Shown here in pieces: positions 4,225 to 21,751 of a stretch of 64,000 nt of DNA. Each line of letters opens with the position of its first letter. Position 1 is the stretch's first letter. The notes below the pieces were generated by a model that worked only from the letters and a program-made list of their open reading frames with translations, was not told where the DNA came from and ran no database searches. The translations under genes and the position numbers were made by a program. Origin of the DNA: Thermoanaerobaculia bacterium (lineage in GTDB: Bacteria > Acidobacteriota > Thermoanaerobaculia > UBA5066); the NCBI GenBank assembly GCA_963816185.1, contig CAWFJJ010000024.1:256001-320000 (forward strand), given 5' to 3'.

Positions 4225-5807
<1,583 letters not shown>

Positions 5808-5811
<4 letters not shown>

Positions 5812-5839
5812 CACAGCTGCGATGTTTCAGGTCTACTCT
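5808..5839 (+). promoter_or_regulatory. Putative sigma70 promoter of the leader and superoperon
   Basis: TTGACA 5808-5813; TACTCT 5834-5839 lies 7 nt before the leader ATG (leaderless geometry); the -35/-10 spacing of 20 is longer than canonical. Confidence 0.55.
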
Positions 5840-5846
5840 CCCGGTC

Positions 5847-5888
5847 ATGAGCTCGACCTCGCGCCACTGGCACGTGCATCACAGCTAA
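5847..5888 (+). CDS. His/Trp-rich attenuator leader peptide MSSTSRHWHVHHS
   Basis: ATG AGC TCG ACC TCG CGC CAC TGG CAC GTG CAT CAC AGC TAA; 4 His and 1 Trp in the last 7 sense codons, directly upstream of the his+trp genes. Confidence 0.85.
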   Translation: MSSTSRHWHVHHS

Positions 5889-5943
5889 GCCGGCCGCGCT
5901 TCGCGCCGCCGGCCCATCGTGGTCCGGAGGCGCGCGGGTTTTT
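5889..5943 (+). terminator. Attenuator: overlapping antiterminator (5889-5913) and terminator (5902-5934, T5 at 5939-5943)
   Basis: GCCGGC-CGCG/CGCG-cc-GCCGGC is mutually exclusive with CGCGCC-g-CCGG-c-CCA/TGG-t-CCGG-a-GGCGCG, which is followed by cgggTTTTT. Confidence 0.7.
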
Positions 5944-5958
5944 CAGTAGCACTCACCC

Positions 5959-5991
5959 AACCCCCTCCGGACAGGAGGGGGTTCTCGTTTT
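5959..5991 (+). promoter_or_regulatory. Perfect 10-bp hairpin sequestering the aroDE Shine-Dalgarno (possible second terminator)
   Basis: AACCCCCTCC-GGACA-GGAGGGGGTT then CTCGTTTT, overlapping the TTG start at 5990. Confidence 0.65.
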
Positions 5992-7537
5992 GGCCCTGAC
6001 CGCTCAGAACACGCTTCTCGTCGCCTCGGTGGCGCCGGCGTCGAACGCCGATGCCGTCCTCTCGCGCGAGGCCCTCGCCGATCTGCCTCCTTCGGCGGCG
6101 GTGGAATTACGCCTCGACGCGATGACCGAGGAGCCCGCATTCGGCGCGCTGCGCGCGCGCTTCGAAGGAAGAACACTCATCGCGACTGTCCGTTCCAAAG
6201 CCGAGGGCGGCGTGCTGCCGCGGACTGAAGAGGAAGAGAGGAGATTCTTAGAAGGTGCCCTCGCTGCGGGATTCGATCTCGCCGATGTCGAATTTCGCCG
6301 CGACGTGGGGGACCGCCTCGCCCGCATTCCTTCTTCTAAGAAAATCTCTTCCCTTCATGACCTTGAAGGCATCCCGGCCGACTTGAACACGGTCGTCACC
6401 CGGATGCTCTCGACCGGCGCGCGATACGTGAAGGTCGTCGCGACGGCGAACGATTCCGGCGACGCCCGCCGCCTCCTCGAGCTCCAGGCCGCGCACAGGG
6501 ACGGGCGCCTCACGGTGTTCGGAATGGGAGAGGCCGGCATCGCCACGCGGGCGCTCGCACCGTATCTCGGCGCGCCGCTCGCGTATGGCGCGCTTCTTCT
6601 CGGGCGGGCAACGGCGCCGGGCCAGCTCCTCGCCCGCGACCTCGTGGAGATCTACGGCGTGGCCCGGGCGCGAAAGGTGTCGAGTCTCTTCGGACTCCTT
6701 GGAGGCATGGTTTCGCACTCTCTCTCTCCGGTCATCCACAACGCCAACTTCGAGGCGCTCGGCCTCGACGCGATCTACGTACCATTTGCAATGCTCGTGC
6801 TTGGGAGAGAGCTCGAACCCCTCGTCAACTCGCTCGACACCCTCGGCGTTCGCCTCGCGGGCGCCTCCGTGACGATCCCCTTCAAGGAGGAGGCCGCGGC
6901 GCTTTCGGACGCGGGAGACGACGGCGAGAAAGCGGTCAACACGTTGCTGAGGTCGAGCGCTCCGGGCCAGCCGCTCAGGCTGCGAGCGGAAAACACCGAT
7001 CGCGCGGCGTTCGCGGCCGTGATCGAAGGGACGGGGGTCGCGCTCGTTCTCGGGGCGGGCGGCACCGCAAGGGTCGCCGTCGAAGTTCTGAGAAAGAGGA
7101 AATACGAGGTCTTTCTCATGAACCGAGGCGACGAGCGCGGCGAAGCGCTCGCGAAAGCCACGGGCGCCCATTACGTTTCTCAGAAATCCTCGATGGCCTT
7201 TCCCAGGCCGGACGTCCTCGTCAATGCCACGCCGCTCGGCCTGAAAGACGGCGATCCTCTTCCCTGCGAGCTGGGTCTTCTGCGCCGCGGGATGCTCGTC
7301 GTCGACGCGCCGTACCGCGCGACCGGCACGGAGCTCGTCAGGGCGGCACGCGCCGCGGGCGCGCGCGTCGTGGACGGCCAGACGCTGCTCCTTCTCCAGG
7401 CCGCGGGCCAGGCGACGCTTTTCACGGGCAAGAAGACGGCTCCGCGAGATCTTCTCGAGCGCCTGCCGTCGCATGCACGGCTGGCCTTCTCCTTTTTCGA
7501 AGAGCACCGCCCTGCGCTTCCGGGGATTTCGACATGA
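5990..7537 (+). CDS. aroDE: Bifunctional type I 3-dehydroquinate dehydratase / shikimate dehydrogenase
   Basis: ELRLD, IATVR, SLHD, YVKV and APGQ (AroD) followed by HSLSPVIHN, SVTIPFKE, AVNT, NTD, GAGG and NATPLG (AroE); TTG start after GGAGG. Confidence 0.92.
   Translation: MALTAQNTLLVASVAPASNADAVLSREALADLPPSAAVELRLDAMTEEPAFGALRARFEGRTLIATVRSKAEGGVLPRTEEEERRFLEGALAAGFDLADVEFRRDVGDRLARIPSSKKISSLHDLEGIPADLNTVVTRMLSTGARYVKVVATANDSGDARRLLELQAAHRDGRLTVFGMGEAGIATRALAPYLGAPLAYGALLLGRATAPGQLLARDLVEIYGVARARKVSSLFGLLGGMVSHSLSPVIHNANFEALGLDAIYVPFAMLVLGRELEPLVNSLDTLGVRLAGASVTIPFKEEAAALSDAGDDGEKAVNTLLRSSAPGQPLRLRAENTDRAAFAAVIEGTGVALVLGAGGTARVAVEVLRKRKYEVFLMNRGDERGEALAKATGAHYVSQKSSMAFPRPDVLVNATPLGLKDGDPLPCELGLLRRGMLVVDAPYRATGTELVRAARAAGARVVDGQTLLLLQAAGQATLFTGKKTAPRDLLERLPSHARLAFSFFEEHRPALPGIST
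6245..6342. repeat. Convergent motif pair in the AroD domain (6245 / 6334)
   Basis: GAAGAGAGGAGATTCTTAGAAGG ... CCTTCTTCTAAGAAAATCTCTTCC; cores 89 bp apart. Confidence 0.85.
7086..7185. repeat. Convergent motif pair in the AroE domain (7086 / 7177)
   Basis: GAAGTTCTGAGAAAGAGG ... GTTTCTCAGAAATCC; 91 bp apart. Confidence 0.6.
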
Positions 7538-9174
7538 ACACAGACCGACCCGACCCAAACCTGCCGCGCGGAGTTCAGGCGTTTCTTTTCGATGCGGCCG
7601 AGCGCCGCCGCAAGGCCGAGGACTCGGTCGTCCGGAGGCTCCATGAGGCCGGCCTGCGCGAGGTCATCCTTCCCGTTCTCGATTTCGCGGACCCGTATGC
7701 GGGCGTGACGGCCGAGGGCGACGAGCGCATCTATCGTTTTCTCGATCGGCAGGGAAACACGCTCTCGCTCAGGGCGGACTTCACGCCGATGGCCGCGCGC
7801 GTCGTCGCGCCGCGCCTCGGCACGATCTCGGGTCCTGTGTCCCTGTTCTATCGGGGCGATGTCGTGCGCGACGAAGAAATCGGAGTGGGGCGCCGCCGTG
7901 AGTTCGCTCAGGTGGGAGCCGAGCGTTACGGGGACGGGCGGCCGGAAGCGGACGGTGAGATGCTCGCCCTCGCCCTCTCGTGCCTCGGCGACGTCCCGGC
8001 CCCGCGCCTGAGGCTGACGCTGGGCTGGGCGGGCCTGCTCGAACGGCTGCTCGCCGCGGTCGCGCCGGCGCTCGCGCGCAGGGAGGGCTCCGGTTTGGCC
8101 GACGCGGCTTCGGCCGCCCGCTCGCGACACGTAACGCAGCTCGAGGCGCTGCTCCGGCGCTCGGGCGCAGTCGAAGCGGCCGCGACCGAGGTTGCGAGAG
8201 CGCTCCTCGTAGGCTTCGATCCCGGCTCGATTCTCTTCCGGCCGCCTCTCCTCGCGGGCGCCGCCGCCGAGCTCGCGCGGGCCGTGGCCGTGGCGCAAGC
8301 CGCACGGCCGGGCCTGTCGGTCGTCGTCGACCTGGCAGACGCGCCCGAGGCCCCCTACTACACGGGGCTCACGTTCAGCGTGGACGCGGCGGGCGGCGGC
8401 GGCACGATCGCCGGAGGCGGCCGGTACGACGGGCTCCTCGCGCGCTTCGGCACAGCCGCTCCGGCCCTCGGGTTCTGCATCGGACTCGAGGCGTTCGGCG
8501 CCGCCACGGATGCCGGCGAAGAGGACGAAACCCCGCGGCCGCTCCGGATCGCGGTCGGTAAGGGCCGGCTCCTCCCGCAGGCTCTCGCGGCGCTGCGCGC
8601 GGGAGGGGCCACATTCGACGAGCCGGACGGAAGGCGTCTCCTCGTGGCCGCGACGGACGGCGCGTTCGAGCTGCTCTTGCTTAAGGACGACGACGTGCCG
8701 ACGTACGTGGCGCACGGAGGAGCCGATCTCGGCATCGTGGGCAGCGACCGCGTCGCCGAGAGCGGAGAGGATGTCACGTCGCCCGTCGAGCTGCCTTTCG
8801 GCACTTGCCGGCTGTCGCTCATCGGGAGGGCCGGCGAAGCCTTCCGACCGAACGGGCAGCCCGTGCGCGTCGGCACGAAGTATCGTCGCCTCGCAGCGCG
8901 GTACTTCGACGAGAGGAAGATCGCCCACGAGATCGTCCCGCTGGCGGGCTCCGTGGAGCTCGCCGCGGCCCTGAAGCTCACGGACGTCGTCGTGGACCTG
9001 ATCGAGTCGGGGTCCACGATCGCCGCGAACGGCCTCGCCGAGATCGAGACGATTCTTCCAAGCTGCGCCACCCTCATCCTCGGCCGCGCGTCGCTCGTGG
9101 CGCGCCGGGCCGAGATCGCGGAGTTCGTCGAGCGGCTGCGCGCGAGCGTGCGCGCGGGAACCGGAAAACCATGA
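7534..9174 (+). CDS. hisZG: Fused ATP phosphoribosyltransferase regulatory subunit HisZ + short-form HisG
   Basis: LRADFT, REFAQVGAE, YYTG and GGGRYD (HisZ) in one frame with LRIAVGKGRL, DVPTYV, GSVELA and DLIESGST (HisG). Confidence 0.92.
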   Translation: MNTDRPDPNLPRGVQAFLFDAAERRRKAEDSVVRRLHEAGLREVILPVLDFADPYAGVTAEGDERIYRFLDRQGNTLSLRADFTPMAARVVAPRLGTISGPVSLFYRGDVVRDEEIGVGRRREFAQVGAERYGDGRPEADGEMLALALSCLGDVPAPRLRLTLGWAGLLERLLAAVAPALARREGSGLADAASAARSRHVTQLEALLRRSGAVEAAATEVARALLVGFDPGSILFRPPLLAGAAAELARAVAVAQAARPGLSVVVDLADAPEAPYYTGLTFSVDAAGGGGTIAGGGRYDGLLARFGTAAPALGFCIGLEAFGAATDAGEEDETPRPLRIAVGKGRLLPQALAALRAGGATFDEPDGRRLLVAATDGAFELLLLKDDDVPTYVAHGGADLGIVGSDRVAESGEDVTSPVELPFGTCRLSLIGRAGEAFRPNGQPVRVGTKYRRLAARYFDERKIAHEIVPLAGSVELAAALKLTDVVVDLIESGSTIAANGLAEIETILPSCATLILGRASLVARRAEIAEFVERLRASVRAGTGKP

Positions 9175-10594
9175 TGAAGATCGTCGATGCGCGCACGCGC
9201 GAGGGGCGACGCGAGCTGGAAGCTTTGCTGAAGAGCCGGCGGGGAGCGTCTCCCGACTTCGCCACGTTGAAGCTGGTGCTGCCGGTGGTGGAGGACGTTC
9301 TGCGAAGAGGGGAGCCCGCGCTGAGCAAATATGTAGAACGCTTCGACGGGCCGGGTGCACGCGGGCAAGGTTCGAAGAGAGCCGTTTCTTCGAATGGTAA
9401 AGAGGGGAAACGGCCCGGCGGAACGACGGCAGCGGCGCCCGTTGGCGATCAGCCCTATTACCGTTCTAAGAAAATCCTTATTGATCCCCGTCGCGAAAAG
9501 TTACCTCGTGTGGATCGTTCGTTCGCTGCCGCGTTCCGCCTCGCGCGGCAGCGCATCGAGGCCTATCACCGCAAACAGCTCTCGTACGAATCCGTGGGCT
9601 TCTCTTTCAAAGACTCTCTCGGCGTGTCGTTCGTCGAGAAACCCGTGCCGCTCGACTCCGTCGGCGTCTACGTGCCGGGAGGCCGGGCGTTCTATCCGTC
9701 GTCTGCTCCTGATGGGCGTCGTGCCGGCGCGGGTCGCCGGGGTGCCGCGCGTCGTCGTCGCGACGCCGCCCAACGCGTGGGCGTCGAGCCCGGAGCTGCG
9801 CTGGGCGGCGCGCGAGCTCAGCGTCGACGAAGTGCTCCTCGCGGGCGGGGCTCACGGCATCGCGGGGCTCGTCTCCGTCGCGGGAGTCGCGAAGATCGTG
9901 GGCCCGGGCAACCGCTTCGTCGCGGCGGCGAAACACATCGTGTCGGGCCTCGTGGCCGTGGACATGCCGGCCGGGCCTTCGGAAGTTCTCATCGTCGCGT
10001 CTCGCGACGCGGACCCGTCGCTCGTCGCCGCGGATCTCCTCGCGCAGGCCGAGCACGACCCGGACGCAAGCTGCCTGCTGTTCACGGATTCGAGAGAGCC
10101 TCGCTGCCGACGTGCGGGTCGAAGCGTGTCGCTGCAAATTGGGAGCCTCGAATTCGGACCTTTCTTCGAAAGTGAATGCAGCCACGGCGCGCGCCGCGCT
10201 GCTTCGGCGATGGCCGAATCTTCATTTTCAAAGAAATCTCTCGCGCCCTCGCTTTCGGCCGGCTCAAAGGTCGCCGCCGAGCACGTGCAGTTGATGGGCC
10301 GGAGTCCGCGGAGGGTCTCGCCCTGCGCTGCTCCCGACCGCCGGCGCGCTTTTCATCGGCTCGTCGACGCCGACCGCTCTCGGCGACTACCTCGCCGGCC
10401 CGAACCATGTGCTCCCGACGGGGGGCGCGGCGCGCAGCTTCTCGGGCCTCTCCGTGCGCGACTTCCTGCGCTGGGGCCGCTCCATGAAAGTGCCCGCGAG
10501 CGCAGCGCGCCGGCTCGCGCCTCCGGCCGCAGTTCTCGCGCGGTTCGAAGGCCTCGCGGCGCACGCGCGCTCTCTCGATCGGAGGGCGTCATGA
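9171..10594 (+). CDS. hisD: Histidinol dehydrogenase, broken by several frameshifts (probable assembly errors)
   Basis: GVYVPGG-YPSS, KIVGPGN, DMPAGPSE, QAEHDP, AAEH and GDYLAGPNHVLPT motifs spread over three frames; ATGA coupling at both ends. Confidence 0.88.
9298..9472. repeat. Motif cluster in hisD 5' region (forward 9298, 9386; reverse 9464)
   Basis: GTTTCTTCGAATGGTAAAGAGGGG ... CCCTATTACCGTTCTAAGAAAATCC; 78 bp apart, bracketing an in-frame insertion. Confidence 0.8.
10162..10235. repeat. Convergent motif pair in hisD 3' region (10162 / 10227)
   Basis: CTTTCTTCGAAAGTG ... CATTTTCAAAGAAATCTCTC; 65 bp apart in an indel-affected region. Confidence 0.65.
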
Positions 10595-11658
10595 CGGGCC
10601 GGACGGTGCCGGTCCGTGAGGAGATCCGGGCGCTCGGCGCGTATCGGCTCGTTCCCGAGGACGCGCCGCCTCTCCGCGCAAAGCTGGATTTCAACGAGTC
10701 GCCTTTCGAGGTCCCGGAGGAGATCCGCGCCGAGGTTCTCACGCGCCTTTCCGAGAAGAGGTGGGGCCGCTATCCGGAGTTCGGAGCGCCGCGCCTGAAA
10801 AGAGCGGTCGCGGACGCGATCGGCCGCCGGCCCGAGGAGATCGTCGTCGGAAACGGCTCGGGAGAGGTGATCCTGGCCGCCGTCTCCGTGTTCGCGGGCG
10901 GAGGGTCGCTCGTGCTTCCGACGCCCACGTTCTCGCTCTACGGGCAGATCGCCGCGATCGCGGCCGCGCGCGTCACGGACATCCCGCGAACGGGCCCGGA
11001 TTTCGCGCTGGCCGAAGGTGCGTTCCTCACGGCTTCGGAGCAGCCGGGAGCCGTTCCGCTCGTGTGCTCGCCGAACAATCCGACCGGCGGCGTCGTCGGG
11101 AGGGATTTCCTCGAGCTCTTGCTCGACGCCGCTCCCGTCGTCCTCGTCGATCAGGCGTACGTGGATTTCGCCGAGGCCGGGGACGATGCGCTGCCGCTCG
11201 TCGGCCCGCGTGCGAATCTCGTCGTCTTCCGCACGTTGTCGAAGGCCTACGCGGCGGCGGGGTTTCGAATCGGATACGCGGTCGCGGTGCCCGATCTCGT
11301 CCTCGAGATCGAGAAGGCGATCCTGCCCTTCAGCGTCGACCTCGCGGCCGAGGAGCTGGCCATCGCCGTTCTCTCCCATCCCGAGATCTCGCGCGAGCAC
11401 GTGAGGCGGATCGTGGCCGAACGCGAGCGAGTCGCCGAGGCGCTTCGCGCCGCGGGTGCCGTCGTCGCGCCCTCGCGCTCGAACTTCCTGTTCGTGCGCC
11501 CCCCGGGAGACGATGCCGCGCTCGTGCGCCGCGGCTTGCTCGATCGGGGCATCCTGGTACGCGACATGACCTCGGCCGCGCCGGGGCGGCTGAGGGTGTC
11601 GATCGGGTCGCGGGCGGAGAACGACGTCTTCCTCGAGGCGTTCCAGGAGGTGATATGA
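10591..11658 (+). CDS. hisC: Histidinol-phosphate aminotransferase
   Basis: LDFNESP, GNGSGE, SPNNPTG, DQAY and RTLSKAYAAAGFRIGY motifs. Confidence 0.95.
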   Translation: MTGRTVPVREEIRALGAYRLVPEDAPPLRAKLDFNESPFEVPEEIRAEVLTRLSEKRWGRYPEFGAPRLKRAVADAIGRRPEEIVVGNGSGEVILAAVSVFAGGGSLVLPTPTFSLYGQIAAIAAARVTDIPRTGPDFALAEGAFLTASEQPGAVPLVCSPNNPTGGVVGRDFLELLLDAAPVVLVDQAYVDFAEAGDDALPLVGPRANLVVFRTLSKAYAAAGFRIGYAVAVPDLVLEIEKAILPFSVDLAAEELAIAVLSHPEISREHVRRIVAERERVAEALRAAGAVVAPSRSNFLFVRPPGDDAALVRRGLLDRGILVRDMTSAAPGRLRVSIGSRAENDVFLEAFQEVI

Positions 11659-12251
11659 GCCGGAGCGGGTCCGTCGAGCGGACGACGAAGGAGACCTCCA
11701 TTTCGCTCGCCATGGCTCTCGACGGCACGGGGCGGGCGGACGTCCAGACGCCCGTGGGATTTCTCTCGCACATGCTCGAGACGATCGCGAAGCACGCGCG
11801 CGTCGACCTCACCGTGCGGGCCGCCGGGGACGTGCACATCGACGCGCATCACACCGTCGAGGACGTCGGTCTCGCGTTCGGCGAGGCGCTGGATCAGGCC
11901 CTCGGATCGCGGGCTGGGATCGAACGGTTCGGCACGAGTCTCGTCCCTCTCGACGAAGCGCTCGCGCGTTCCGTCGTGGACCTTTCGGGCCGGCCTTACA
12001 TCGTCTTCGAGTCGCCTGTCGACAAGGAGCTGCTCCTCGTCACGAAGGACTTTCCGTTCGCCCTCGTCGAGGAGTTCTGGAAGTCCGCGGCGTTTCGCGG
12101 CAAGTTCAACCTCCACGTGGACGTCGTCCGGGCGAAGAACGGCCACCACGCGGCCGAGGCGGTCTTCAAGTCGGCGGCGCGCGCGCTGCGCCAGGCCATG
12201 GCGGTCACGGGGACGGAAATCCCCTCGACGAAGGGAACGCTGACGGCATGA
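11655..12251 (+). CDS. hisB: Imidazoleglycerol-phosphate dehydratase
   Basis: RTTKET, HIDAHHTVED, NGHHAAEAVFK and PSTKG motifs. Confidence 0.97.
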   Translation: MSRSGSVERTTKETSISLAMALDGTGRADVQTPVGFLSHMLETIAKHARVDLTVRAAGDVHIDAHHTVEDVGLAFGEALDQALGSRAGIERFGTSLVPLDEALARSVVDLSGRPYIVFESPVDKELLLVTKDFPFALVEEFWKSAAFRGKFNLHVDVVRAKNGHHAAEAVFKSAARALRQAMAVTGTEIPSTKGTLTA

Positions 12252-12877
12252 GCACCCCGCCCCGCGCGCCCGTCACGCTCGTCGACTACGGGGTCGGCAA
12301 CACGACCTCGGTGATCCGGGCATTCCGGCGCCTCGGCGCCGAGGTGGAATTCACGGCCGACCTCGACCGCGTGGCGTCCGCCCGGCGGCTGGTTCTCCCC
12401 GGAGTCGCCGCCTTTCAACCGGCCATGAGCCGCCTCCTCGAGACGGGCCTCGAGGCCGGCGTGCGCGCCGCGGTCAAGCGCGGAGGGCGCCTTCTCGGTC
12501 TGTGCCTCGGCTTCCAGCTCCTCTTCGAGGAAAGCGAGGAGCATGGCGTGCACAAGGGCCTGGGACTCGTGCCGGGCCGCGTGTGCCCGTTTCCCGCCCG
12601 CGTGCGCACACCCCACGTGGGATGGAATCAGCTCCTGACGCGCCGCCCGGACGGATTCGTCCAGGGGCTGCCGGACGAGAGCTGGGTCTACTTCGTCCAT
12701 TCCTTCAGGCCGGAAGGCGTCGACGCCGCGGACATCGCGGCCGCCTGCGACCACGGTGGGGAGTTCGCGGCCATCGTTCAGCGCGGGAACGTCTGGGGGT
12801 GCCAGTTCCATCCGGAGAAGTCGTCGGAGAACGGCCGCCTTCTCCTGACGAATTTTCTGAAGGAGGACGCGGCGTGA
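12248..12877 (+). CDS. hisH: Imidazole glycerol phosphate synthase, glutaminase subunit
   Basis: DYGVGN, GLCLGFQ, PHVGWN, YFVHSF and QFHPEKS motifs. Confidence 0.97.
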
Positions 12878-13665
12878 GCGGCGAACGCCTGGCCCTGTGG
12901 CCCGCGATCGACCTCATGGGCGGGCACGTCGTGCGGCTGCTGAAGGGCAAACGCGAGGACGTGACGTTCTACGACGAGCCTCCCGCTCGGGCCGCGAGGA
13001 GGTTCGCCGACGAGGGCGCCGACGGCGTCCACGTCGTGGACCTCGATGCGGCGTTCGGGACCGGCAGCAACAAGAAAGAGATCGAAGAGATTCTCTCTGT
13101 TTCGGAGGCTGCGGGAGTCGCGGTGCAGGTCGGGGGAGGGATGCGCACACCCGCCGCTGTCGAGGATTTCTTAGAAAGGGTGAGTGGGGCCCGCGTAGTC
13201 GTAGGCAGCTTGCCGTTCCTCGACCGTCCCGCCTTCACGCACCTTCTAAGAAAATCTTCCTCTTCGTCTTCCTCTTCGACTTTATCTTGCCGCATCGTCG
13301 TCGCGCTCGACTGCAAGGACGGCCGGCCGACGGTGCGCGGGTGGACCGAGGACTCCGGGATGGGAGACGCCGTTTCCGTGGCCCGGTCGCTCGCGGACAT
13401 CGGCGTGTCCGCCCTTCTCGTGACGGACATCGCCCGCGACGGGGCGATGACGGGTCCCAATGTCGAGCTTCTGGCCGACGTGCGTGCCGTGTTTCCGGGC
13501 GAGATCCTCGCGTCGGGCGGCATGCGAGGCGAAGAGGACCTCGCTCCTGTCGGAGGCGCGCTCGCGGGCGGTGCCCGCGGTGCCATCTTCGGCCGATCTC
13601 TTCACGCCGGCGTCACGACCGTACCCCGGCTCCGGGCGGCGCGCGACCTCGGGAGGCCGTCATGA
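12874..13665 (+). CDS. hisA: ProFAR isomerase
   Basis: [30 protein letters not shown] and ASGG motifs; poly-Ser insertion. Confidence 0.95.
13168..13252. repeat. Convergent motif pair in hisA (13168 / 13244)
   Basis: GAGGATTTCTTAGAAAGGGTGAG ... CACCTTCTAAGAAAATCTTCCTCTTC; 76 bp apart. Confidence 0.85.
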
Positions 13666-15095
13666 CGGTCGCGGTGCGTGTGATCCCCTGCCTCGACGTG
13701 GCGGGCGGCCGCGTCGTCAAGGGCGTCTCTTTCGAAAGCCTCCGCGACGCGGGCGATCCGGTCGAGGCCGCCGTGCGGTACGAGGCCGAAGGCGCCGACG
13801 AGCTGGCGTTCCTCGACATCGCGGCCGCGCACGAGAAGCGCGGGACGCTCGTGGACCTCGTGGCACACGTGGCCGAAGTGCTTTCGATTCCGTTCACGGT
13901 CGGAGGAGGCGTGCGGTCGGTGGAGGACGCGGACGCGCTCCTCCGCGCGGGAGCCGACCGCGTGACCGTGAACACCGCCGCGGTCGAGGACCCTTCCTTG
14001 ATCACGAGGCTGGCCGAACAGTTCGGGGCGCAATGCGTCGTCGTCGCGATCGATGGCAAGCGCATCCGCGACGCGAGCGTCCCCGCCGTGATGCGCGTGA
14101 TGACGCACGGCGGACGCAATCCGACCGACCGGACGGTGACCGGGTGGGCCGCCGCGGCCGCTGCGGCGGGCGCGGGCGAGATCCTCCTGACGTCCGTCGA
14201 CGCCGACGGCACGCAGGCCGGCTTTGATCTCGAGATGCTTCGCGCCGTGCGGGCCGCCGTGGACGTTCCGATCGTGGCCTCGGGCGGCGCGGGCCACCTC
14301 GAGGATTTCGCGAAGGCCGTCGTGATCGGCGGCGCTGACGCCGTGCTCGCGGCCTCCGTCTTCCACGACCGCATCTACACGATCGGCGCGGTCAAGGCGG
14401 CGATGCGGCGGGCCGGACTCGCGGTTCGCCCCGCGCCCGCGCGCGTGCGCACGCTTCTGCCTCGCTTCGATGCGGCCGGCCTGGTCCCTGTGATCATGCG
14501 CGACGTGGTGACGGGTAACGTCCTCACCCTCGCCTGGGCGAATGCGGAGGCGCTTGCGAAGACGCGCGAGACCGGCCTCGCGCACTTCTACAGCCGCTCG
14601 CGGAAGGAGCTCTGGAAGAAGGGCGAGACGTCCGGAAACGTCCAGCATGTCGTCGGGATCTCCCTCGATTGTGACGACGACGCCGTCCTGTACGACGTGC
14701 GCCCGTCGGGTCCGGCCTGTCACACCGGCGCGGACTCGTGCTTCTCGCGCGTCGAGACGCTTGGAACGCCCGGCTCCGAGGTCGTGCCCGCGGACGAGCT
14801 CGACCTCACGGCTCTCTTCGCGATCGTCAAGGCACGGAAGGAGTCACCGGTTCCCGGGTCGTACACGAACGAGCTCCTCGAGGGCGGCGTCCCGCGCATC
14901 GCCCAGAAGGTGGGCGAGGAAGCCGTCGAGACGGCCATTGCGTCGGTCACCGGCGACGCGGGTGCGCTCGCCGGCGAAGCCGCGGACCTTCTCTACCATC
15001 TCGCAGTCCTGCTGACGGCTCGCGGTGTCGGGCCGGGCGACGTCGCCGCCAAGCTCGCCGAGCGCCGCGGCGCGCCGCGACGAGAGAAGCCGTGA
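13662..15095 (+). CDS. hisFIE: Triple fusion HisF cyclase + HisI cyclohydrolase + HisE pyrophosphatase
   Basis: [22 protein letters not shown] (HisF); YSRSR-LW-KGETSG, DCDDD, CHTG (HisI); [19 protein letters not shown] (HisE), all in one frame. Confidence 0.9.
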
Positions 15096-16474
15096 AAGCG
15101 CCCGATCGCCTCGTCGTCGTCGAGCAGCCGGCCGATCTCACGACTCCGGTGGCGCTGATGCGGGGCCTTCTCGCGGCGGGCGGGCCTGCCTTCCTCCTCG
15201 AATCGGTGGAGGGCGGGGATCGCGTGGCGCGGTGGTCGTTTCTCGGCGCGTCGCCGTCGGGCGAGATCTCCGGCCGGGAGACGGACCCATTTGACGCCCT
15301 CCGGGCGCTCCCTCGCGACGACGCGGTGCCGGACGGCGACGACCTGCCGCCCTTCACGGGCGGGGCCGTCGGCTATGTGGGCTACGACGCCGTGCGGCGA
15401 CTCGAGCGGCTGCCCGACTCGAACCCCGATCCGATCGGACTGCCGGACGCCTGGTTCGGGATCTTCGACGCGGTCATCGCCTTCGATCACGCGCGGCATC
15501 GGCTCCTCTTCGTGACGCACGCGGGAGAGGGGACCGAAGAGGAGAGAAGAGCCTTCGAAAGGCTGCGGGAGCTCGAAGCGCGTGCCAAGGCCGCGCCCGC
15601 ATCGGCTGCTTCGGCGTCGCCCGCCTGTCCCTCTTTCGAAGAATCTCTTCCTCTTCCGTCCTTCCTGTCCGCGGTCGAGCGCGCGAAAGAGCACATACGC
15701 GCGGGCGACGTCTTCCAGGTCGTCCTGTCGCGGCGGTGGTCCGCGCCGTTCTCGGGCGATCCCTTCGCCGTGTATCGCGCCCTGCGCTCGCTCAGCCCGT
15801 CGCCGTACCAGTACTACCTGCGGACGCCTCACGGCGCGATTTTCGGTGCGTCACCCGAGCGCCTCGTCCACGTCGCCGCGGGCCACGAAGAGGCGACTGC
15901 CGAGACGATCCCGCTCGCCGGGACGCGACCGCGGGGCGCGACGCGCGAGGAAGACCTCGCCTTCGAGAGGGAGCTGCTCGCCGACCCGAAGGAGCGCGCC
16001 GAGCACGTCATGCTCGTGGACCTCGGGAGGAACGACCTCGGCCGGGTCGCGAAACCGGGCAGCGTCCGCGTGAAGGATTTCTTCCATGTCGAGCGCTATT
16101 CGCACGTCATGCACATCGCCTCGCGCGTGACGGGAGCCCTCGCGCCCGGCAAGGACGCCGTCGACGCGCTCGTGGCGACGTTTCCCGCGGGCACGCTGAC
16201 CGGGGCGCCGAAAATACGCGCGATGGAGATCATCGAGGATCTCGAGCCCGTGAGACGAGGCGCATACGGCGGCGCCGTAGGCTACCTCGATTTCGCCGGC
16301 AACCTCGACGTCGCAATTGCGATCCGCACGGCCATCGTAGCAAACGGCACGTTGCACGTGCAGGCCGGAGCTGGCATCGTGGCGGATTCGGATCCCGAGT
16401 CCGAGGCCACCGAGTGCGAGAACAAGGCGCGTGCCCTCATGCGCGCCGTGGAGAGAGCGGGGACGTACCGATGA
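15092..16474 (+). CDS. trpE: Anthranilate synthase component I
   Basis: [36 protein letters not shown] and GTLTGAPK motifs. Confidence 0.95.
15551..15643. repeat. Convergent motif pair in trpE (degenerate 15551 / 15635)
   Basis: GAGAGAAGAGCCTTCGAAAGG ... CCCTCTTTCGAAGAATCTCTTCCTCTTCC; 84 bp apart. Confidence 0.7.
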
Positions 16475-17040
16475 TCCTCGTGATCGACAACTACGACTCG
16501 TTCACGTACAACCTCGTCCAGATCCTCTCGACGCTCGACGAGGACGTGCGCGTCGTCCGAAACGACGCACTTTCCGTGGACGAGGTTCTCGCCGCGAAGC
16601 CCGACCGGCTCGTCGTATCCCCCGGTCCAGGCCGGCCGGAGGACGCGGGGATCTCGTGCGAGCTGTTCCGCCGGAACGAAACGATCCCGCTGCTGGGCGT
16701 CTGCCTCGGTCATCAGGCTCTCGGCGCCGTCTTCGGCGGAACGATCTCCCGGGCGCCCGTGCTGATGCACGGCAAGACCTCGGAGATCGCGCACGACGGG
16801 AAAGGACTCTTCGAGGGTCTCGAGAACCCGTTCACGGCAACGCGCTACCACTCGCTCGTGGTCGAGAAGGATTCGGTTCCGGCCGCGCTGCGCATCACGG
16901 CGACCAGCCCCGACGGGCTCGTGATGGGCCTCGCGCACCGGACACGGCCTCTCGTGGGCGTTCAGTTCCACCCCGAGTCGATCTTGACGTTGCAGGGGGA
17001 GCGCCTCTTGAAGAATTTCGTCGCCGGGCGGCTCGCGTGA
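16471..17040 (+). CDS. trpG: Anthranilate synthase component II
   Basis: IDNYDSFTYNL, SPGPG, GVCLGHQ, RYHSL and QFHPES motifs. Confidence 0.96.
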   Translation: MILVIDNYDSFTYNLVQILSTLDEDVRVVRNDALSVDEVLAAKPDRLVVSPGPGRPEDAGISCELFRRNETIPLLGVCLGHQALGAVFGGTISRAPVLMHGKTSEIAHDGKGLFEGLENPFTATRYHSLVVEKDSVPAALRITATSPDGLVMGLAHRTRPLVGVQFHPESILTLQGERLLKNFVAGRLA

Positions 17041-18071
17041 CGACGGCGGCGCACCGCGCGCTGCGCGCCGTGGCGCGCGGGGGACGCCTGACGCGAGAGG
17101 ACGCGCGTGGCGCGGTATCGGCCCTCCTCGATGAGAACGTTCCGGCTGCGATCGCGGGGGGGCTTCTTTCGGCGCTGGCTGCCATGGGCGAGACGGTCGA
17201 GGCCGTGGCCGGCGCCGTGGATGCTCTCCGGGCGCGCGCGACGCGGCCTCCGGTCGACCCCGCGCTCGCCGCCCGCGCGATCGACGTGTGCGGGACCGGA
17301 GGCGACGGGCTCGGCACGTTCAACGTCTCGACCGCGGCCGCTTTCGTCGCGGCGGGCGCGGGCGCGCCGGTCGCGAAGCACGGGAACCGCGCGGTTTCGT
17401 CCGCGTGCGGTTCGGCGGACGTACTTGCGGCGCTCGGGGTCGACATCGAGATGTCTCCCGCGCTTGCCGCCGAGGCGCTCGCCCGCGCGAACGTCACGTT
17501 CTTCTTCGCGCCGCTCTATCACCCGGTCATGAAGAAGGTCGGCCCGCTCCGGCGCGAGCTCGGCCTGCGCACGGTCTTCAATCTCGCCGGGCCGCTCTCG
17601 AATCCAGCCGGCGTCACCCGGCAGATCGTCGGCGTCGATCACCCCGAGCGCGTCCCCGTGATCGCGGGCGCCCTCGCGGCACTCGGTGCCGAGCACGCCC
17701 TCGTGTTTTCGCACGAGACGGGGGGTGACGAGATCCTGCCGTTCGGGCGAACGTTCGCCGCGGAGGTGCGCCACGGGGAGGTCGAGCTCCTCCAGCTCGG
17801 CGCCGTCGACTTCGGCTTCGCCGAAGGGAGATCCGATGCGCTCCGGGGCGGAGATGCCGAGACGAACGCCGAGATCCTGCGCGCCCTTTTCGGAGGATTC
17901 CGGCGCGACGCACGGAGCGTGATTCTCATGAACGCCTCCGCCGCGCTCGTCGTCGCGGGCATCGCGGCTGACTTTCGCGAGGGCGTGGCCCGCGCCGAGG
18001 CTGCGCTCGACGAGGGAAAGGCGGCGGCGGCCCTCGAGGCGCTCGTCCGGATCTCACGGGGAGACCGATGA
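17037..18071 (+). CDS. trpD: Anthranilate phosphoribosyltransferase
   Basis: DVCGTGGDG, FNVST, KHGNRAVSS-GSAD and RTVFNLAGPLSNP motifs. Confidence 0.96.
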   Translation: MTTAAHRALRAVARGGRLTREDARGAVSALLDENVPAAIAGGLLSALAAMGETVEAVAGAVDALRARATRPPVDPALAARAIDVCGTGGDGLGTFNVSTAAAFVAAGAGAPVAKHGNRAVSSACGSADVLAALGVDIEMSPALAAEALARANVTFFFAPLYHPVMKKVGPLRRELGLRTVFNLAGPLSNPAGVTRQIVGVDHPERVPVIAGALAALGAEHALVFSHETGGDEILPFGRTFAAEVRHGEVELLQLGAVDFGFAEGRSDALRGGDAETNAEILRALFGGFRRDARSVILMNASAALVVAGIAADFREGVARAEAALDEGKAAAALEALVRISRGDR

Positions 18072-18139
18072 GGATTTCTTCGAAAGGGAAAAGGGAACGA
18101 GAGAGAAGATTGAAGATTTCTTAGAAGGGGTAAGAGGGG
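18068..18139. repeat. Purine-rich trpD-trpC spacer made of two tandem motif copies (18076, 18118)
   Basis: GAGGATTTCTTCGAAAGGG and GAAGATTTCTTAGAAGGGGTAAGAGGGG, 42 bp apart; degenerate reverse copy at 18310 inside trpC. Confidence 0.85.
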
Positions 18140-19732
18140 ATGGGCGGTTCGGTTCTGGGCGAGATTCTCGCGGCAAGGAGGCGCCGTATCGCGGCGGGGG
18201 AGTTCACGGCGCACACGGCCGCCGCCGCGCGCGCTGCCGCGGGATTTTCGCCAGCGCCCGACGCGATGCCCGACGGAGCGCGCTTCACCGCCGCTCTTTC
18301 TTCTTCCTCTTCTAAGCGAAATCTTCCTCTTTCTCTTTCTTTCTTTCTTGCGGAAATCAAGCACCGCTCGCCGAGCGCGGGTCTGATCCTGCCCGACGTC
18401 CCGGCGCGCATCGAGGAGGTGGCGCGCGCTTATCGGCGCGGCGGGGCCTCGGCTCTGTCCGTCGTCATCGAGCAGGACTACTTCGGGGGCGATCCGTCCT
18501 GGCTGCCGCGCGCCAGGGCGGCGTCGGGGCTCCCGGTCCTGATGAAGGACTTCGTGGTGGACGAGACCCAGCTCGATTTCGCCGCCGCTCTGGGCGCCGA
18601 CGCCGTGCTCCTGATCGCCGCGGCTCTCGACGGCGCGGCCCTCGCGCGGCTCTACGCGGCGGCCCTCGAACGCGGTCTCGCGGCTCTCGTGGAGGCGCAC
18701 GACGAGGCCGAGGTTGAACGGGCGCTCGACGCGGGCGCGGAGATGATCGGCGTGAACTCACGCGACCTGAGAACGTTCGAGGTCGACCTGCCGGGCATGG
18801 CGCGCCTCGGCGCGCTCCTGCCGGCGTCCGTAGTGCGCGTGGCCGAAAGCGGCATCAAATCGCGGGGCGACGTCGAGGCGCTCGCCGCCGCCGGCTACGG
18901 CGCCTTCCTGGTGGGAGAGGCGCTTCTCAAGGCGCCCGACCCCGCAGCGATGCTGCGAGGGCTCCGCGGCGAGAACCCCACGGAGGTCAAGATCTGCGGG
19001 ATCACGCGGGAGGAGGACGTCGACATCTGCCTGGAACTGGGCGTCGACTGGATCGGCCTCGTCTTCGCGCCGAGGTCTCCTCGCTGCCTGACGCCGGAAG
19101 AGGGGAGACTTCTACGAATGAAAGCGAAAGGCGAAGGGCACCGGGGATTTCTTCGAATGAAGGACGAACGGAACGGAGCCGGGGTCCGCAAACACGGCGC
19201 AGCGGCGGCGGGAGGCGTCGGCGCCGGCGCGGTGAAGGGTGTCGTCGCGGTGTTCGACGGGAACAACGAGGAGGAGATTCGACGAGTGATCGAACTCGTG
19301 CGCCCCGACGTCGTTCAAATGCCCCTCTCGCCTCGTTCACTTTCCCAGGAGTCCTTTTCTTCGGCCCCCTCCTTTCTTCCCCCTTCTAAGAAATCCTTCT
19401 CTTCGGACATCACGGTGTGGAACACGATCCGCGTCGGCCGCGACGACCTCTCCTCCGCGAGGGAAGCCGAAGGCGACGCGCTCCACTTCGATACGTCCGT
19501 CGCAGGAGCGAGCGGCGGCACCGGCAGAGTCTTCAACTGGAGCCTGCTGGAAGGAATCGATCGCTCCCGCCCCGTGGTGCTCGCGGGCGGGCTGAAGCCC
19601 GAGAACGTCGCGGAAGCAGTGAGAAGGGTGAGGCCCGACGTCGTAGACGTGGCCTCGGGAGTGGAGAAGGCGCCGGGAATCAAGGACCCGGCGAAAATCG
19701 CCGCGTTCGTGAGGGAGGTGCGACGTGCCTGA
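18140..19732 (+). CDS. trpCF: Bifunctional indole-3-glycerol phosphate synthase / PRA isomerase with insertions
   Basis: [27 protein letters not shown] (TrpC); VKICGIT, GGTG-F-W, LAGGL, DVASGVE (TrpF). Confidence 0.93.
19110..19392. repeat. Motif cluster in the TrpF domain (forward 19110, 19149; reverse degenerate 19342, 19384)
   Basis: GGAGACTTCTACGAATG, GGGATTTCTTCGAATG and CCCCCTTCTAAGAAATCCTTCTCTTC; tandem spacings 39 and 42 bp. Confidence 0.8.
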
Positions 19733-20945
19733 GGCAACTGGAGCCGATTTCCGTCCGCCCGAGGCCGACGCGCAGGGCCGCTTCGGCGCGTTCGGCGGGC
19801 GGTTCGTGCCGGAGACGCTCATGGCGCCGCTCGAGGAGCTCTCCCGCGCGTACAGGGACGCCCGGCGCGATCCCGCGTTCCGGCGCGAGCTGGACGGCCT
19901 CCTGAGGACGTATGCCGGCCGGCCGACGCCCCTCACGTATGCGAAACGGCTCTCGGAGGACCTCGGCGGCGCGCGCATCTTCCTCAAACGCGAGGATCTC
20001 CTCCACACGGGCGCTCACAAGATCAACAACGCCCTCGGCCAGGCCCTCCTCACGGTCCGGATGGGGAAGTCGCGGGTCATCGCGGAAACCGGCGCCGGCC
20101 AGCACGGCGTCGCGACGGCGACCGCGTGCGCGCTCCTCGGGCTCTCGTGCGTCGTTTACATGGGGGCGGTCGACGTCGAGCGCCAGGCCCTGAACGTGTA
20201 CCGGATGAAGCTCCTCGGCGCGACGGTCGTGCCCGTCATGGGCGGCACGCGGACGCTGAAGGACGCGATCAACGAGGCCATGCGCGACTGGGTCGCCTCG
20301 ACGGCGTCGACGCACTACATTCTCGGATCGGTCCTCGGGCCGCATCCGTTTCCGACGATGGTCCGCGACTTTCACGCGGTCATCGGGCGCGAGGCCCTCG
20401 CCCAGAGCCGCAAGGCACTCGGAAAGCTGCCGGACGTCCTCGTCGCGTGCGTGGGCGGCGGCTCGAACGCGATCGGCCTCTTCCGGGAATTCCTTACGTT
20501 TCGCGAGGTCGAGATGGTGGGGGTCGAAGCCGGAGGCCGGAGCCTTGCGCCCGGCGAGCACGCCACGCGCTTCGGCCCGGGCTCGATCGGCGTCCTCCAT
20601 GGCACGCGTACGCTCATCCTTCAAGACGCGGACGGGCAGGTTCTCCCCACGCATTCCGTTTCCGCCGGCCTCGACTATCCGGCCGTCGGACCCGAGCACG
20701 CGCGCCTCGCCGAGCTCGGGCGGACGCGGTACGTCTCCGTCGGTGACGAGGCCGCCCTCGCGGCCTTTCACCGGCTCGCCGAGACCGAAGGCATCATCCC
20801 GGCCCTCGAGACCGCGCATGCTGTCGCCTGGGCGATCGCGGAGGCTCCTCGCCGGCCGAAGAGTGCCGCTCTCCTCGTGAATCTCTCCGGCCGCGGTGAC
20901 AAGGACGTCGTCTCGGTGGCGCGGCGCGAGGGGGTGACGCTGTGA
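19725..20945 (+). CDS. trpB: Tryptophan synthase beta chain
   Basis: [30 protein letters not shown] and SAGLDYP motifs. Confidence 0.98.
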
Positions 20946-21751
20946 CTCGCATCGGGCGGGCCTTCGCGAAAGCGAAGGCGTCGGGGCGCGCGGCGCTCGT
21001 CATCTTCGTGGAGGCCGGTGATCCGAACCTCGCGACGACCCGGCGGCTCCTGCCAGCGCTCGCCGCGTCCGGGGCCGACGTGCTCGAGCTCGGAATTCCT
21101 TTCAGCGATCCTCTCGCCGACGGTCCCGTCATCCAGCGCGCGAGCGAGCGCGCTCTCGCGTCTGGGACGACTCTTCAGGCGGCCCTCGCCCTGCTCGCCG
21201 AGCTGCGCGCGGCGCGCTTCAGCGCGCCGGTCGTGGTCTTCAGCTACGCGAACCCGATCCTCGCGATGGGCGAGGCGGAGTTCGCCCACCGCGCGGCCGA
21301 GGCCGGCGCGGACGGCGTGCTCGTCACGGACCTCCCGCCGGAGGAAGGGCGAGGGTTCGCGTCGATCCTGAAGAGCGCGAAGCTCGATCCCGTCTACCTC
21401 GTCGCGCCCACGTCGCCCGACGAGCGCATCCGCCGGGCGGGTTCGCTGTCACGTGGATTCCTGTATGTCGTGTCGCGCGCGGGCATCACGGGGACCCGCA
21501 CGGAGCTTCCCGAAGGGCTCGCGGCGCTCGTCGGACGCGTTCGAAAGCACGCGCCGCGCCTTCCGGTCGCCGTCGGCTTCGGCCTCTCGACGCCCGGGCA
21601 GGTGCGGACGGTCGCGGCACTCGCGGATGGAGTCGTCGTGGGAAGCGCGATCGTGACCGCGATGGAGGAGGCGATCCAGGAGGGCCGGGATCCCGTCGAA
21701 GCGGGCGCCGGGCTCGTACGAGTTCTCTCGGCCGCGACGAAGAAAGGTTGA
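20942..21751 (+). CDS. trpA: Tryptophan synthase alpha chain
   Basis: [26 protein letters not shown] and ADGVVVGSA motifs. Confidence 0.98.

Follow-up and report, generated by a model that had tools for sequence, protein, structure and literature searches.

The aro-his-trp operon and its leader region

The window, by which the whole 64-kb stretch of DNA analysed here is meant, contains a 14-gene operon on its forward strand, with Pfam support for every gene. The gene upstream of the leader region is cysS (Pfam tRNA-synt_1e). The operon opens at TTG 5990 with a fused aroD-aroE (DHquinase_I and Shikimate_dh_N), continues with hisZ-hisG, hisD, hisC, hisB, hisH, hisA and hisF-hisIE, and ends with a trp part in the order trpE, trpG, trpD, trpC-trpF, trpB and trpA. 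Eight genomes checked in 6 other genera of the family all have the 14 genes in identical order behind the leader element. The assembly that contains the window amounts to 5.09 Mb; its relatives are uncultured Acidobacteriota, mostly Thermoanaerobaculia, and all are metagenome-assembled genomes.

Four of the genes are fusions: aroD-aroE (5990-7537), hisZ-hisG (7534-9174), hisF-hisIE (13692-15095) and trpC-trpF (18140-19732). The hisZG fusion is family-wide, and the matches to hisZ and hisG lie apart in one genome (G083) of the sister family f2. The hisD frame (9171-10560) is broken near 9704 in the window assembly, with the N-terminal part in the frame of ORF 8805..10175 and the Pfam Histidinol_dh match (9640-10140) in that of 9355..11658. 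Alignment to the relative G017 reveals a 1-nt insertion near 9704 that goes uncompensated, together with numerous small indels around 10100-10330; the break may stem from the assembly, or hisD may be a pseudogene. In-frame stretches of low GC content (0.45-0.5 against about 0.7) occur in hisD (9348-9459), cysS (5200-5319), hisA (13240-13299) and trpCF (18280-18339). In hisD this stretch exceeds that of G017 by 102 nt, and a search for a repeated element behind this insert matched the insert itself only.

The region between cysS and aroDE contains a promoter and a short leader ORF, and the operon that this leader would regulate begins directly behind it:

5808-5813, + strand: leader promoter, -35 box TTGACA, with hardly any variation across the genus alignment
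5832-5837, + strand: probable -10 box TCTACT, 18 nt past the -35 box and 9 nt before the ATG
5847-5888, + strand: leader ORF of 13 codons, MSSTSRHWHVHHS, with ATG at 5847-5849 and stop codon TAA at 5886-5888
5865-5867, 5868-5870, 5871-5873, 5877-5879 and 5880-5882, + strand: regulatory codons of the leader ORF (His, Trp, His, His and His)
5990-21751, + strand: the 14-gene operon

The cysS stop codon TGA (5809-5811) sits within the -35 box, an arrangement that is kept across the genus. A first reading of this DNA, made from the sequence only, had regarded the leader as leaderless and had pointed to TACTCT as its upstream hexamer. TACTCT is present at 5834-5839, but the alignment and promoter geometry make TCTACT at 5832-5837 the likelier -10 box. 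The corresponding hexamer in relatives is TCCAAT or TTCAAT, with T1, A4 and T6 invariant in the genus alignment (A1), and other genera have a -10-like hexamer 17-18 nt after TTGAC that ends 7-10 nt upstream of the start codon. The comparison was extended to 69 leaders, comprising 61 from the family (f1) together with those from f2. The distance from TTGAC to the start codon is 36-40 nt in 68 of these 69 leaders and 39 nt in 58; one contig ends early. Because the -35 box stands at a fixed distance from the start codon, the transcript is probably leaderless, which fits the idea of the first reading, and transcription would start at the leader ATG or no more than about 3 nt from it. A GGAGG is absent before ATG 5847, in agreement with the earlier remark that the leader ORF has no SD. 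When a rule anchored on the promoter was applied to 53 loci collected later, it recovered the leader in 41, and the misses fall mostly in genus g8, where the upstream sequence is different.

The 13-codon ORF with His and Trp codons described in the first reading lies at 5847-5888 and is found again in relatives from the same genus. It contains four His codons and a single Trp codon. The first three regulatory codons are 16-24 nt upstream of the segment that forms the 5' arm of the first hairpin (segment B, below) and the last two His codons 7-12 nt, so close that a ribosome stalled at these two would already touch the first bases of B. When the region upstream of the fused hisZG was fetched from 24 genus relatives, a leader ORF with the W/H motif was found in 23, and the contig of the 24th stops short. 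The N-terminal codons of the genus peptide vary freely and R-H-W-H-x-H-H is kept. The remaining variation consists of synonymous CAT/CAC swaps, a variable x and last codon, and a stop codon that is either TAA or TGA; the leader of G010 has a 3-nt deletion that is in frame and removes one codon. At the level of sequence the leader ORF is conserved as a peptide, beyond the RNA alone.

Alternative helices and the terminator

The 161-nt leader folds better than its shuffled counterparts (z = -2.75, 200 shuffles). Behind the stop codon, segments B-C-D-E-F form a chain in which arms are shared by the mutually exclusive helices B:C, C:D, D:E and E:F:

5889-5899, + strand: segment B, 5' arm of the first hairpin, beginning at the base after the stop codon
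5902-5913, + strand: segment C, pairing with B (through 5903-5913) or with D (through 5902-5912)
5921-5937, + strand: segment D, pairing with C (through 5924-5934) or with E (5922-5930 with 5964-5972, 9 bp)
5939-5943, + strand: T5 after segment D, 4 nt past the end of the C:D stem
5959-5968, + strand: segment E
5974-5983, + strand: segment F
5959-5983, + strand: hairpin E:F, 10 bp with the loop GGACA, with the SD GGAGG (5974-5978) in its 3' arm
5982-5992, + strand: U-rich tract TTCTCGTTTTG, the last three bases of which are the aroDE start codon TTG (5990-5992)

Two structures had been proposed in the sequence-only reading. The first, a hairpin at 5889-5913, is recovered with 6 + 4 bp and an energy of -19 to -22 kcal/mol. 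The second, a stem followed by T5 at 5902-5943, is also present, its arms (5902-5912 and 5924-5934) reusing the 3' arm of the first hairpin, but it is not the conserved terminator. Within the genus, 11 of 28 sequences have a run of at least four T after the C:D stem; none of the 33 sequences from the other genera of the family does. The stem with T5 was rejected as the main terminator, being not conserved, absent from the consensus terminator scan and separated from its T run by 4 nt. The T5 would be a lineage-specific and possibly auxiliary signal for early termination.

The consensus scan lists only the hairpin at 5959-5983, with its U tract, as terminator-like. All 69 leaders have a GC hairpin and U tract at the E:F place, with energies from -9 to -28 kcal/mol and at least four U within the first 10 nt past the hairpin. 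Because the conserved terminator is the hairpin at 5959-5983, the switch would be a five-segment relay, in which B:C and D:E alternate with C:D and E:F, and not the plain 2:3 versus 3:4 geometry that had been assumed for it.

The same hairpin could also act on translation. If refolding of E:F served only to gate the SD and TTG of aroDE, termination would have no part in the control; the position of GGAGG in the 3' arm and of the start codon in the U tract is in keeping with this, and passages of a published account describe attenuators with an RBS-sequestering structure in place of a terminator (PMC9413887). Control of translation only is nevertheless unlikely, given the U-rich tract behind the hairpin in 69 of 69 leaders and its terminator-like call in the scan. 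In f2 and in family f3 the hairpin and U tract persist although GGAGG is missing from the 3' arm of the terminator, and masking the SD of the first gene would be a weak control over thirteen further genes. Transcriptional and translational outputs may well operate together.

The helices were compared across the 69 leaders. In every one of them helix B:C begins within -6 to +6 nt of the stop codon's end, the helix parser having taken C:D for the first hairpin in 3 f2 rows. Helix C:D beats dinucleotide shuffles (p<=0.05) in 49 of 69 rows, with a Fisher value of 5.6e-8 over 13 genus medians, and for D:E the corresponding count is 54 of 61 family rows, or 59 of 69 rows when f2 is added (Fisher over genus medians 3.5e-10); these tests use related sequences, and those within a genus are non-independent. 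Segment D resembles the terminator 3' arm F, and its sequence changes along with E and F between genera, such that D:E consists of 9 bp in the window and of a perfect 12 bp of different sequence in genus g18. Taken by itself, the D:E energy of the window does not differ significantly from that of 16-mers drawn at random from the window (p about 0.11); it becomes significant once the terminator loop is included and the linker shuffled (p 0.0025).

Covariation of the stems, which the first reading had named as a check, is present. Both sides change in 16 of 27 modelled pairs, as measured on an alignment that was fitted to the structure and leans towards it. Shuffles yield 9.7 such pairs, with none of 500 attaining 16, and slid controls yield 1-5. 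These changes affect 8 of 10 pairs in B:C and 5 of 8 in E:F.

Pairing of the coding region (A) with the segments behind it finds little favour in the comparison. The classical 1:2 type of pairing, A:B, through which an untranslated hisL or trpL leader is led to terminate, beats shuffles in 5 of 69 rows (Fisher 0.37). An A:D pairing is seen in the minimum-energy fold of the window and was rejected as a conserved part of the element, being unsupported across genera (Fisher 0.26). Moderate support comes only from genera g1, g13 and g18, the pairing in g18 being placed upstream of the W/H codons.

Distribution of the element and the match of its codons to the operon

Covariance models of the element were built on genus sequences (R1), on family-wide sequences (R2) and on nine true leaders (R3, alignment A5). 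Of the 63 family genomes, 61 have exactly one match to R1, with 10 of 10 genera represented, and the two misses are genomes that are 74-75% complete. R2 gives weak matches in two sister families; among 10 weak order-level matches that were inspected, 6 are true leaders and 4 (L129, L132, L134 and L135) were rejected as leaders, consisting of terminator-like hairpins only. With R3 the element is found in 72 of 81 genomes of f2, 6 of 7 of f3 and 0 of 62 of f1, the last being covered by R1 and R2. The unpublished genomes G025, G030 and G146 are counted in the tallies of the hisZG search, R2 and R3, and are used for these tallies only. One contig (L193), the HisZG of which is 67% identical to that of the window, is labelled Acidithiobacillales, which is probably a matter of binning or labelling.

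At least one Trp and at least two His codons are found within the last 12 codons in 61 of 61 family leaders. The His/Trp ORF is thus conserved family-wide in all leaders found, as the first reading had proposed to verify in relatives. Examples of the peptides in other genera of the family are ...VLWHWHHA, ...SWHWHWHHG, ...RPWHPHHT and ...LHWHGHHN. It is scarcely conceivable that the ORF arose by chance between the terminator region of cysS and aroDE and has no regulatory role. GC-rich DNA does fold easily, and the D:E energy of the window is unexceptional among random 16-mers. However, the intergenic stretch has a mean column identity of 83-85%, which exceeds that of the neighbouring protein (74% for HisZG between the two genus clades), and a single copy per genome across the order, covariation and codons that track the operon also speak against chance.

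The operons behind the element differ in content outside the family. For 53 loci, made up of 44 from f2 and f3 (with up to 17.6 kb fetched downstream) and 9 from f1, operons were classed by tblastn with the window proteins. The following classes were obtained, with the codon counts taken over the last 12 codons of the leader:

aroDE-his-trp operons, 11 loci in 8 genera: 1-3 Trp and 3-4 His codons
aroDE-trp operons without his genes, 39 loci in 10 genera: 1-4 Trp and 0-1 His codons
hisZG-first operons, 3 loci in 2 genera: 0 Trp and 4 His codons

Typical Trp-only leaders contain WWW, WW, WCW or WYWYW. Those of the hisZG-first operons contain HPHHH or HHGHH, and the three contigs concerned end inside the his genes. 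An ORF search blind to W and H, which required a stop codon 60-125 nt before the terminator and at least 8 codons and ranked candidates by the fold around the stop, arrived at the identical ORF in 50 of the 51 loci parsed. The change of codons can be followed within single genera. In g7 one genome (G033) has aro-trp genes only and the leader GNGWRNEVNR, in contrast to HHWHH or HRWHH before merged operons. Genus g8 has one hybrid leader as against WCW leaders plus a separate HHGHH leader, and g2 has separate WW and HPHHH leaders. In f2, Trp-only and hybrid leaders can be aligned over their full length, and their W/H codons then share columns.

His-only paralogues of the leader precede hisZG at three loci (L198, L199 and L222; f2, genera g2 and g8) and read ..ARHPHHHEVNG and ..AHHGHHQGNR; the genomes with such a copy also carry a separate Trp-only copy before aroDE-trp. 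The aroDE-trp leaders L201, L202, L205 and L206 of f3 alternate Trp and Tyr (..WYWYW.. and ..WYWY..), and in genome G028 a DAHP synthase gene follows trpA (L201:8076-9416). The f3 leader may be another two-amino-acid leader, for Trp and Tyr.

With four His codons against one Trp in the window, the leader could be thought to sense His alone, its Trp codon being a relic of a trp leader or kept for RNA pairing; the TGG lies within 5859-5870, which is able to pair with D in the minimum-energy fold. This explanation is improbable. All 61 family leaders contain TGG, and 23 of them have 2-3 Trp codons within the last 12; the pairing of the ORF with D is the one that is unsupported across genera and that in g18 lies upstream of the W/H codons. 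Furthermore, leaders of his-first operons are without any Trp and those of aro-trp operons are Trp-only. The core of the sequence-only reading, that one leader senses both His and Trp, is supported by conservation and above all by this tracking of operon content by the codons.

The codons match the content of the operon and therefore behave as a leader-peptide sensor predicts, unlike a ligand or protein sensor. It is accordingly very unlikely that the leader works through a ligand or factor (as a T-box, as a riboswitch or with a TRAP-like protein) and that its small ORF is incidental. T-boxes do serve his genes in other phyla, as stated in passages of PMC9413887. However, at gathering score no Rfam family is matched in the 64-kb window, and at permissive thresholds the region 5700-6100 gives four chance-level matches to unrelated families and no T-box. 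Such control could explain neither the codons following operon content nor the first hairpin abutting the stop codon in all 69 leaders.

Proposed mechanism and relation to known attenuators

It is proposed, with a probability of roughly 0.8, that the element is a ribosome-mediated transcription attenuator, the leader of which, with its His and Trp codons, governs the single 14-gene aroDE-his-trp operon. The parts, their conservation, the alternative pairings and the agreement of the codons with operon content are observed; the start of transcription, termination, stalling and the kinetic order of folding are inferred. The leader ORF would be translated as a leaderless message from a transcript starting at or near the ATG. 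When charged tRNA-His and tRNA-Trp are plentiful, the ribosome would reach the stop codon and cover B. With B covered, C would pair with D, leaving E for F, and E:F together with the U tract would terminate transcription at the start of aroDE, the SD being buried as well. A ribosome stalled at the His/Trp codons (5865-5882) would leave B free, so that B:C forms first. D would then pair with E, F could not make the terminator, and the polymerase would read on with the SD exposed. A shortage of either amino acid would thus switch the operon on.

The folds calculated for the full-length leader of the window give C:D and E:F at equilibrium, whichever part of the ORF is masked, and the ON state was never produced in these folds of the window. 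Because the equilibrium fold stays with C:D and E:F, the ON state must be a kinetic trap, as in classical attenuators. Before F is made, the E arm of the window is paired with a probability of 0.82 when B is free as against 0.38 when B is masked. The same calculation over 69 leaders gives a mean E pairing of 0.84 with B free and 0.62 with B masked; 45 of the 69 follow the expected order, and the two states are not separated in f2, g18 or g10.

The covariance models of the known leaders, His_leader RF00514 and trp leader RF00513, do not match the element, so its likeness to hisL is one of mechanism and not of family. The Salmonella his leader reportedly follows a six-segment model, said to go back to Johnston et al. 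in 1980, in which B:C and D:E allow read-through and C:D and E:F form the terminator. The element resembles enterobacterial hisL in its short ORF with His codons near the 3' end, in its chain of mutually exclusive helices and in the intrinsic terminator placed directly before the first gene. It differs in that Trp codons are interleaved with the His codons, that A:B pairing is unsupported, that its transcript is probably leaderless whereas hisL bears an SD, and that one arm of the terminator also serves the first gene as its SD. Its operon adds aro and trp genes, and its host phylum is Acidobacteriota.

The known multivalent attenuators, to our knowledge, join amino acids of one branched pathway. 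The E. coli thr leader (Thr and Ile) and the ilvGMEDA and ilvBN leaders (Leu, Val and Ile) have mixed codons, and a shortage of any of these amino acids relieves termination. The element is similar to them in carrying codons for more than one amino acid in one peptide. Unlike the thr and ilv systems, which each serve one branched pathway, it joins the separate His and Trp pathways, which have only PRPP in common and are brought together by operon fusion.

Genes for aromatic amino acids, tryptophan and histidine are also linked in the aro supraoperon of Bacillus subtilis, in which aro, trp and hisC genes form one transcription unit under the TRAP protein. The operon described here differs from that arrangement, with its single his gene and TRAP, in having all his and trp genes and leader-peptide control. 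In other phyla, trp genes are under TRAP and his genes under T-boxes.

In E. coli trpL and the actinobacterial trp leaders, Trp codons stand in a peptide of about 14 codons, and stalling picks the antiterminator or the terminator, according to passages on these leaders (PMC4007540, PMC1262725). The element shares with trpL the Trp codons in a short leader peptide and the selection between structures by stalling, as proposed above. The E. coli and actinobacterial leaders have four segments and respond to Trp alone, unlike the window form, which is a hybrid; its aro-trp relatives in the order are Trp-only. Leaderless leader peptides, whose transcripts start on the first base of the start codon or one base upstream of it, are described elsewhere too: 14 are predicted in Deinococcus deserti, including one for trpEGD with its start site at -1 (in passages of PMC4007540), and the polycysteine short ORFs of mycobacteria are of this kind (10.1101/834739). 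These leaders each respond to one amino acid, in contrast to the two of the present element, the start of which is placed by promoter geometry only.

A full-text literature search returned no His/Trp hybrid leader and no such operon in this lineage, in line with the statement of the first reading that none was known; the survey of Lopatovskaya et al. (2010), as cited in a passage of PMC4833913, might bear on priority.

A single leader appears to place a shikimate gene and the two PRPP-consuming pathways, to His and to Trp, under an OR-type starvation signal. The Trp-only, His-only and hybrid versions of a homologous element form a comparative series in which regulatory specificity follows operon fusion, and ribosome-mediated, probably leaderless attenuation is extended to a little-studied uncultured lineage, the operons of which can be annotated with models R1-R3. 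It is probable that an order of uncultured Acidobacteriota, labelled Thermoanaerobaculia in its records, possesses a modular leaderless attenuator chassis, the codons of which are reprogrammed to a Trp-only, His-only or W-H hybrid form as operons merge, and that, as part of the same reading, the hybrid form occurs wherever his genes sit between aroDE and trpE. If this is true, no earlier leader peptide would be known in which signals of starvation for two amino acids of unrelated biosynthesis are integrated as in the hybrid, and the series would be a natural demonstration of attenuator specificity evolving by codon swaps on a fixed RNA relay.
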